A stretch of 64,000 bases of DNA from Escherichia phage CMSTMSU. The notes under the pieces were generated by a model, which did no database searches, was not told the origin of the DNA, and saw nothing but the letters and a program-made list of their open reading frames with translations. How positions within the stretch are numbered: position 1 is the first letter of the stretch; the number at the start of each line of letters is the position of its first letter. Position numbers and translations under genes: made by a program. The stretch lies in sequence record MH494197.1. One strand, given 5' to 3'. This document shows positions 44,688 to 44,879 of this stretch, one piece after another.

Positions 44688-44879
44688 ATTGGGCTTCCTT
44701 GTCATTAGTTTGTTTGTTAAGTTTTAACGGGCTATTAACGTTGATTTGTCTTCATTGACTCATCAACAATTTACATTATATCATGGGATTTTTAACCGTC
44801 CCAAGGTTTTTTACTCTGTTTGTCAAGGCTCATTGCCCTGACAAACATCATTATATCACCTACTTATTGTCTGTCTCGC

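Follow-up and report, generated by a model that had tools for sequence, protein, structure and literature searches.

Upstream of a gp32-like SSB gene, in the 64,000-nucleotide stretch of phage DNA analysed here (referred to as the window), lies an inverted repeat at positions 44817-44847, which the original prediction, made from the letters alone, suggested could be an operator analogous to that of T4 gene 32 or a processing site. The question raised by this locus is what kind of element the repeat is and, if the phage controls its SSB as T4 does, where in the leader such control would reside.

Source phage and gene order

A megablast search with positions 43500-46500 identified the source of the window as a jumbo coliphage of the genus Asteriusvirus, with 98.6-98.8% identity to Ecwhy_1, EC.P1, fEgEco12 and vB_Ec-M-J and about 87% identity to the 121Q/PBECO4/G17 group. 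In the annotated relatives, the minus-strand gene order is terminase large subunit, a 434-aa virion structural protein, SSB, a UvsX-like recombinase and UvsY. The gene downstream of the repeat encodes a gp32-family SSB, as had been anticipated, with a match to Pfam PF08804 that lies above the gathering cutoff (E 7.4e-7, 29.8 bits versus a cutoff of 26.8). Its ATG occupies 44685-44687 on the minus strand, and its frame is broken further on by 1-nt deletions. Alignment with vB_Ec-M-J showed eight such single-base deletions, all of them within homopolymer runs, which we read as probable sequencing errors and not as biology.

The same kind of loss was seen across 43600-47600, where single bases are absent from homopolymer runs by comparison with 98.7%-identical relatives; the eight losses of the SSB gene fall within its 1.05 kb (43644-44687), and 3001 window bases align to 3025. 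The open reading frames of SSB, the structural protein and the terminase (46188-47517) are all fragmented in this way, which looks like homopolymer under-calling by the sequencer rather than pseudogenes or programmed frameshifts. The record of vB_Ec-M-J (locus L002, 4210-5851) splits the terminase large subunit into two CDSs that overlap, labelled 'A' and 'B', while G17 has one 1638-nt CDS at this position; the split is probably an indel or annotation artefact.

A highly stable stem-loop on the SSB sense strand

On the plus strand, the sequence of 44817-44847 is TGTTTGTCAAGGC-TCATT-GCCCTGACAAACA. A repeat search confirmed the inverted repeat, giving two 13-nt arms (44817-44829 and 44835-44847) that are 92% complementary and separated by 5 nt. 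Read as minus-strand RNA, this element, which we call HP1, forms 13 contiguous pairs including one G.U, with its 5' arm at 44847-44835, its 3' arm at 44829-44817, the 5-nt loop AAUGA and a dG of -21.8 kcal/mol (z = -6.6; none of 200 shuffles was equally stable). As plus-strand RNA, it forms nine pairs, one A.C mismatch and three further pairs, with a dG of -17.1. The A.C mismatch of the plus strand is a G.U on the SSB coding strand, and the stem therefore has 13 uninterrupted pairs there; of the '9+2 bp' stem described originally, the nine pairs hold for the plus strand, but the rest was slightly undercounted.

When the whole 64-kb window was scanned with a 45-nt sliding fold (mean -5.4, sd 3.0), HP1 ranked first in stability on the minus strand, and the remaining top-ranked hairpins were terminator-like, with U-tracts after the stem. 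Complementarity in the sequence flanking HP1 adds just two weak pairs. The distance from its sense-strand 3' end (44817) to the A of the SSB ATG (44687) is 130 nt, in agreement with the earlier estimate, and HP1 thus spans -160 to -130.

Directly after the stem, the sense strand continues with GAGUAAAAAA and the plus strand with UCAUUAUAUC, and HP1 was not called by the terminator scan. The earlier view that it is no standard terminator is upheld on this evidence: an intrinsic terminator was rejected because HP1 has no U-tract on either strand and the true terminators of the window have one. The TTGACA contained in the hairpin was likewise rejected as a promoter -35 element, as neither strand has a -10 element at 16-18 nt. 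A search of 44500-45000 with Rfam covariance models, including those of known phage elements, gave no match to HP1; the sole hit in this interval, IBV_D-RNA on the plus strand at 44927-44969 (16.4 bits versus a gathering threshold of 35, E 0.62), lies outside HP1 and is a chance match. Elsewhere in the window, a strong terminator-type hairpin at 8663-8707 on the minus strand (-21.7 kcal/mol) is followed at once by CCTTTATATAAATAA, within which TATAAATA is the T4 late-promoter consensus; this arrangement suggests a terminator/late-promoter junction.

HP1 pairing is conserved and covaries

To compare HP1 among relatives, we used the five distinct variants found in Asteriusvirus (window type, 121Q/PBECO4, ph0011, A4 and Turkey5/JNE01). 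Because the loop lengths differ, a MAFFT alignment of the hairpins placed the 3' arms wrongly; pairs were therefore counted with the arms alone, connected through a constant GAAA linker. The results showed that pairing is kept in all 65 cells (13 pairs in five variants), with compensatory double changes at 5 of the 13 pairs; pair 13, for example, appears as C-G, U.G, U-A and G-C. The observed pairing values were attained by 1 of 500 column shuffles, and pairing fell to 35-49% when the register was slid. Seven cells depart from Watson-Crick pairing, and each of them is G.U when read on the sense strand and A.C on the opposite one. The kept pairs, the double changes and the sense-strand bias of G.U together are good evidence, drawn from five sequences of one clade, that HP1 is a selected RNA structure on the SSB sense strand.

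RNAalifold, applied to full leaders, independently recovered HP1 together with two further hairpins described below (the P2-spacer hairpin and HP2), and left the last ~55 nt before the ATG unpaired. Covariation in relatives and structure prediction of the whole leader had been put forward as checks on the repeat, with lack of conservation as the outcome that would count against it; with 13 of 13 pairs kept in the five variants and HP1 recovered from whole leaders, that objection fails. Structured coding-strand RNA is supported by both the fold and the G.U bias, and HP1 lies in leader DNA of some of the SSB transcripts.

Conservation is uneven along the stem. The outer 8 bp of each arm are invariant in sequence, among them the outer five pairs (UGUUU/AAACA), and the inner part varies. 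The spacing between the invariant half-sites GTTTGTC and GACAAA is 15, 15, 15, 17 and 19 nt across the five variants, and the loops are AAUGA, GAUGA, UUAAACA or AAUAAAAAC. By inspection, no conserved downstream complement to these loops that would form a pseudoknot was found, the folding tools used being of a kind that predicts no pseudoknots.

A DNA-pattern search of IMG/VR with TGNTATAATGNNGTTTGT and TATAATGNNGTTTGTN{13,25}ACAAA recovered 121Q alone, the other 50-120 hits being unrelated. Loci in IMG/VR guided by the SSB protein were also collected, which yielded 31 leaders, from which the conserved architecture was established; no HP1 homologue beyond 121Q was found among them.

Tandem promoters of a phage-specific class flank HP1

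Two promoters that do not figure in the original prediction, P1 and P2, were found at this locus. The intergenic regions of eight phages (window, vB_Ec-M-J, 121Q, PBECO4, A4, Turkey5, GAP32 and EJP2), which span three genera (Asteriusvirus, Mimasvirus and EJP2), were aligned, and two TGnTATAAT blocks, each a perfect extended -10 element, proved to be invariant in all eight while their surroundings drift. All Rak2-like SSB leaders fetched, from 16 GenBank phages and 15 IMG/VR contigs, show this arrangement of two promoters.

The extended -10 element of P1, TGATATAAT, lies at 44850-44858 on the minus strand, is invariant in 8/8 phages, and contains as its TGA the stop codon of the upstream gene (44856-44858). 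From the end of its TATAAT hexamer to the HP1 stem is 2 nt in all five variants. The -35-like element of P1, GAGACA (44872-44877, minus strand), is part of CGAGACA-N13-TGATATAAT, with an A-run immediately upstream that reads GGTAAAAAAGCG in the window. P2 has the -35-like element TTGGGA (44799-44804, minus strand) within TGGGACG-N13-TGATATAAT, and its extended -10 element TGATATAAT (44775-44783, minus strand) is invariant in the alignment. Each -10 box has a -35-like element at the correct spacing and an A-run ahead of it. The A-run of P2 lies between HP1 and the P2 -35 at 44807-44812 on the minus strand; it is AAAAAA here and 7 A in close relatives, and A71-A74 are invariant. Its position would be that of a proximal UP-element subsite for P2, which may be why A, and not U, follows the HP1 stem. 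UP-like elements have been noted at RpoD-like promoters of CBB (PMC5259590).

The motif TGNTATAAT occurs 15 times in the window versus 5.9 expected, 13 of these on the minus strand, and GACAnnn-N10-TGnTATAAT is shared by six minus-strand sites (18845, 22752, 28425, 34811, 44783 and 44858). Weaker sites of the phage promoter class G(A/G)GACAAAC-N10-TGnTATAAT were observed at 5438, 39637 and 50053, also on the minus strand, where every site of this class lies; the class is equivalent to TGAAACG-N13-TGnTATAAT of CBB and GAP32. The latter, named 'divergent RpoD-like' promoters, were found by MEME, and cluster ahead of genes for DNA synthesis, in a stretch that includes the SSB gene CBB_277; the 29-nt layout given in Table S6 for CBB is identical to that of P1 and P2 (PMC5259590). 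By motif and spacing, P1 and P2 can be assigned to a phage-specific class TGRRACR-N13-TGnTATAAT of Rak2-like jumbo phages. They share with the CBB/GAP32 promoters a 7-mer, N13, TGnTATAAT and a place ahead of a DNA-replication gene, but the 7-mer here is CGAGACA or TGGGACG instead of TGAAACG, matching it at 4/7 positions in P1 and 5/7 in P2. Downstream hairpins and a tandem arrangement, both seen here, are not described in the CBB paper (PMC5259590).

Most of the window's other promoters of this class lack a comparable downstream hairpin, indicating that such a hairpin is not generic to them. In other genera, the hairpins next to P1 are far weaker than HP1 (-3.5 to -11.5 kcal/mol) and not homologous to it, and they often have GNRA-type loops (GCAA, GAAA). 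In Turkey5 (locus L006, 728-1008) and JNE01 (locus L169, 428-707), three tandem promoter-hairpin-A-run units, not two, precede SSB on the minus strand, and their initial transcribed sequences are alike (GWAGTWTGT). The likeness of these units suggests that the module was duplicated whole, with promoter and hairpin travelling together.

The P2-spacer hairpin, HP2 and the A-rich leader

Between the boxes of P2, an inverted repeat UGGGA...UCCCA (44784-44803, minus strand) covaries in relatives and is the P2-spacer hairpin recovered by RNAalifold. Read on the plus strand, 44784-44812 is this hairpin followed by TTTTTT, which the scan called terminator-like, and in Turkey5 the corresponding sequence has a stem of 7 bp and then eight T. 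This plus-strand hairpin could stop antisense transcription, or may simply arise from the promoter consensus combined with the UP-like A-run; antisense transcripts exist for T4 gene 32.

The second hairpin, HP2, is a 28-nt bipartite stem-loop GUUGAU-GA-GUC-AAUGAA-GAC-AA-AUCAAC (44740-44767, minus strand), located at the predicted P2 +1 and at -80 to -53 from the ATG. Its stem starts 4-7 nt past the leader-proximal -10 in every lineage examined except JNE01, where the proximal -10 is the third in the row and the fold begins at 0 nt. The HP2 loop is AAUGAA, AGGAA or ACGAA.

HP2 is followed by an unstructured A-rich leader of 52 nt (44688-44739, minus strand) without conserved pairs, which includes three UUAA units, the motif AACAAACAAAC and the Shine-Dalgarno sequence AAGGAAG (44694-44700, minus strand). 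In relatives, the motif takes the form AACAAAGAARC, which is conserved across three genera, often in two copies, is carried once or twice by the leaders of all Rak2-like genera, and occurs 13 times in the window versus 5.7 expected. As a general leader motif it was rejected, since no other leader instance was found in the window and the one further instance examined, the sole other exact match, at 8523, is coding.

More distant SSB genes (IMG/VR contigs L153-L167, 40-50% identical) have a TTGACA...TATATT promoter ~100 nt upstream of the ATG. Their leaders show a hairpin at the predicted start and then two to four UUAGGCA(A/C)A repeats before the Shine-Dalgarno sequence, i.e., another motif at the same position as AACAAAGAARC. 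In the Mimasvirus/Eneladusvirus leaders (GAP32, CBB, BF, Yen9-04 and the Kaldavass group), the Shine-Dalgarno sequence AAGGAA lies inside a hairpin loop, with an invariant 5-bp stem UUGAU-AAGGAA-AUCAA (alignment columns 68-83) that is absent in the window lineage.

A predicted 5' stem-loop on the longer SSB mRNA

The structure, strand, conservation and covariation of HP1 and its position relative to the promoter boxes are shown by the analysis; the start sites and any effect on mRNA stability we infer. Our preferred explanation, tentative and at somewhat below even chances, is that HP1 serves the longer of two SSB mRNAs, the one started at P1, as a 5' stem-loop close to the promoter, where it would protect or delimit the message. 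The proposed layout on the minus strand runs from the stop codon of the virion gene, which overlaps P1, through HP1, the A-run and P2, HP2 and the A-rich leader to the Shine-Dalgarno sequence and the ATG.

For E. coli RNA polymerase, the usual start is a pyrimidine-purine step 7-8 nt past the -10 hexamer. For P1, the predicted start would be at T7/G8, inside the 5' arm of HP1, and the transcript would begin pppGUCAGGGC, with an 8-bp hairpin at its extreme 5' end and no unpaired overhang. When truncated at the predicted G+1, HP1 folds from the first nucleotide, with a dG of -13.6 in the window and of -10.8 to -14.9 in relatives. HP2, at the predicted P2 +1, would give the P2 mRNA the same overhang-free hairpin. 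From the positions of HP1 and HP2, we predict for each of the two SSB mRNA isoforms a hairpin that leaves no 5' overhang.

An overhang-free 5' hairpin protects E. coli mRNAs from 5'-end-dependent decay (the ompA leader; RppH and RNase E), a pathway for which PMC3014915 cites Celesnik 2007. A 5'-terminal stem-loop of this kind would block both the removal of pyrophosphate by RppH and the sensing of the 5' end by RNase E. Transcripts that run on from the late gene upstream would fold into the whole 13-bp stem, which might hold back 3' exonucleases or mark a boundary for processing; the processing site suggested originally for the repeat is possible, and close to this explanation. In T4, the gene 32 mRNA is the most stable of all messages and is processed by RNase E at -71, a processing conserved among T4 relatives (PMC3014915). 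The exceptional stability of that mRNA fits a protective 5' stem-loop.

HP1 resembles ompA-type 5' stabilisers in that the hairpin is predicted at, or within a few nt of, the 5' end, that the product is needed abundantly, and that the homologous T4 mRNA is unusually stable. It differs from them in that its stem extends beyond the predicted +1 by 5 bp on the upstream side; 2 nt separate it from the hexamer, and the predicted start, 7-8 nt past the hexamer, falls within the 5' arm. Against the preferred role, the outer five pairs lie outside the P1 transcript if the start is canonical, yet they are invariant. This hints at a role of these pairs in read-through RNA or at the DNA level. Also counting against it are the lack of a similar hairpin at most sister promoters, the weak, non-homologous P1-proximal hairpins in other genera, and the small base of the covariation, five distinct sequences from a single clade.

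Alternative explanations

HP1 might instead serve the upstream virion structural gene, either as a weak or factor-assisted terminator or as a 3'-end barrier that blocks 3'-5' exonucleases after termination further downstream; we consider this unlikely, although it is the main rival. As in intrinsic terminators, a strong stem-loop lies 8 nt past the stop codon of the virion gene, and its stability equals that of the genuine terminators of the window. In each of the remaining Rak2-like lineages, a canonical GC-rich hairpin with a U-tract separates the virion gene from P1 (for example, GGGGTGAAGTATTTCACCCC-ACTTTTTT in EJP2 and GGGAGATTCATTCTCCC-TTTCTT in 7t3), whereas the 121Q/A4/Turkey5/window clade lacks that terminator and has the very strong HP1 instead. 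Moreover, the homologous hairpin of Turkey5 and JNE01 is followed by AUUUUCG, and the outer five pairs are maintained though they can form in read-through RNA only. However, GAGUAAAAAA follows the stem in the window, the terminator scan made no call, and canonical U-tract terminators are used elsewhere in the window. The A-run after the stem and the conserved promoter between the stop codon and the stem also set HP1 apart from intrinsic terminators. In other genera, the separate canonical terminator lies upstream of P1, whereas HP1 lies downstream of it, and losing that terminator and gaining HP1 count as a single event in evolution, within one clade, so that the correlation has n=1.

The idea with which the repeat was originally reported, that it is part of a gp32-type translational operator, makes HP1 a nucleation or boundary site for the cooperative spread of SSB toward the RBS. 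There is a precedent in T4 and RB69, in which gp32 represses its own mRNA via a folded 5' element plus an unstructured A/U-rich region; the T4 operator combines a 5' pseudoknot of ~28 nt with a directly adjoining unstructured UUAAA/UAAA region of >40 nt that includes the RBS (PMC535899, which summarises the operator studies McPheeters 1988 and Shamoo 1993). Like that operator, HP1 lies upstream of a gp32-family SSB gene, and it is folded RNA 5' of a long A-rich leader whose final ~52 nt are unstructured and contain UUAA units and the RBS. In other respects the comparison fails, and we consider this reading very unlikely. HP1 is a simple hairpin with variable loops and no apparent pseudoknot. 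It lies 130 nt from the ATG, and a promoter and two hairpins come between it and the unstructured region, in a gap of ~77 nt that holds the A-run, the P2 -35, the P2-spacer hairpin, the P2 -10 and HP2; neither of the two T4 features, the pseudoknot and contiguity with the unstructured RBS segment, is thus found at HP1. Because HP1 lies upstream of P2, it is missing from P2-initiated mRNAs, and a stem of -21.8 kcal/mol would resist a gp32 that binds single strands. A T4-like operator at HP1 is therefore unsupported, and HP1 is probably not the binding site of SSB itself.

It is HP2 (28 nt, -80 to -53), and not HP1, that adjoins the 52-nt unpaired A-rich segment, and HP2 fits the T4 layout far better. 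By analogy with T4, HP2 plus the leader is a candidate for an operator, a lead and not a finding; if the phage autoregulates SSB as T4 does, this would be the place to look.

Two further readings can be given little credence. One is a DNA operator, in which the palindrome TGTTTGTC-N15-GACAAACA over the P1 start would bind a dimeric phage or host regulator. Overlap with the start region of P1 is a classical operator position, the outer 8 bp of the arms are invariant with a variable inner part, and the half-site resembles the class -35 motif GACAAAC seen at the promoters 18845, 22752 and 28425. Nevertheless, the inner positions pair via compensatory and G.U changes that work on one strand only (7 to 0), and half-sites spaced 15, 15, 15, 17 and 19 nt apart would be rotated relative to each other, which is unsuited to a rigid dimer; the fixed half-site spacing and non-complementary spacer of a dimeric-repressor operator are not what HP1 has. 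The 9-mer TGTTTGTCA is not enriched either, occurring 27 times in the window with <=1 mismatch versus 40 expected, a count on which a repeated genomic motif was also rejected.

A typical RNase III substrate offers ~20 bp of dsRNA, or about two turns of the helix, and often has an internal loop. An RNase III site, or a cis-acting nut- or put-like antitermination RNA just downstream of P1, is similarly improbable: the hairpin is promoter-proximal, a terminator annotated in G17 between SSB and UvsX could be bypassed by promoter-proximal antitermination, and GNRA-type loops are common in the P1-proximal hairpins of other genera, but the 13 bp of HP1 fall short of a typical RNase III substrate, Rfam gave no match in sequence or structure, the loops are not conserved, and nothing like boxA/boxB spacing was seen.

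Significance of the SSB leader

HP1 itself is a modest and ordinary kind of element: as a conserved 5'-leader stem-loop in a tandem-promoter region, it adds one more example of a familiar type and involves no new mechanism. Our literature search on start sites, RNA ends, transcriptomes and half-lives in Asteriusvirus or Rak2-like phages found none, with MEME-predicted CBB promoters as the sole related data. Asteriusvirus and Rak2-like jumbo phages are under development for therapy. Their SSB locus combines, in a compact and testable regulatory unit, a pair of promoters with three hairpins that covary and a leader without structure. With it, two mechanisms of T4 gene 32, mRNA stabilisation and autogenous translational repression, can be tested in distant relatives without the pseudoknot, and the presence of gene 32 mechanisms in distant relatives is an explicit open question of a T4 review (PMC3014915).

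A broader reading, which we put forward as speculative and think rather unlikely, is that the whole SSB leader is a pseudoknot-free counterpart of the autoregulatory and stability module of T4 gene 32, present in all Rak2-like jumbo phages. It would consist of tandem phage-class promoters, each with a hairpin at the 5' end of its transcript, followed by a ~50-nt unstructured A-rich region with AACAAAGAARC and UUAA units. HP1 and HP2 would set the 5' boundary and the stability of the two mRNA isoforms, which may respond differently to SSB or RNase E. If this were true, gp32-type translational autoregulation would reach a distant lineage with a different RNA architecture.
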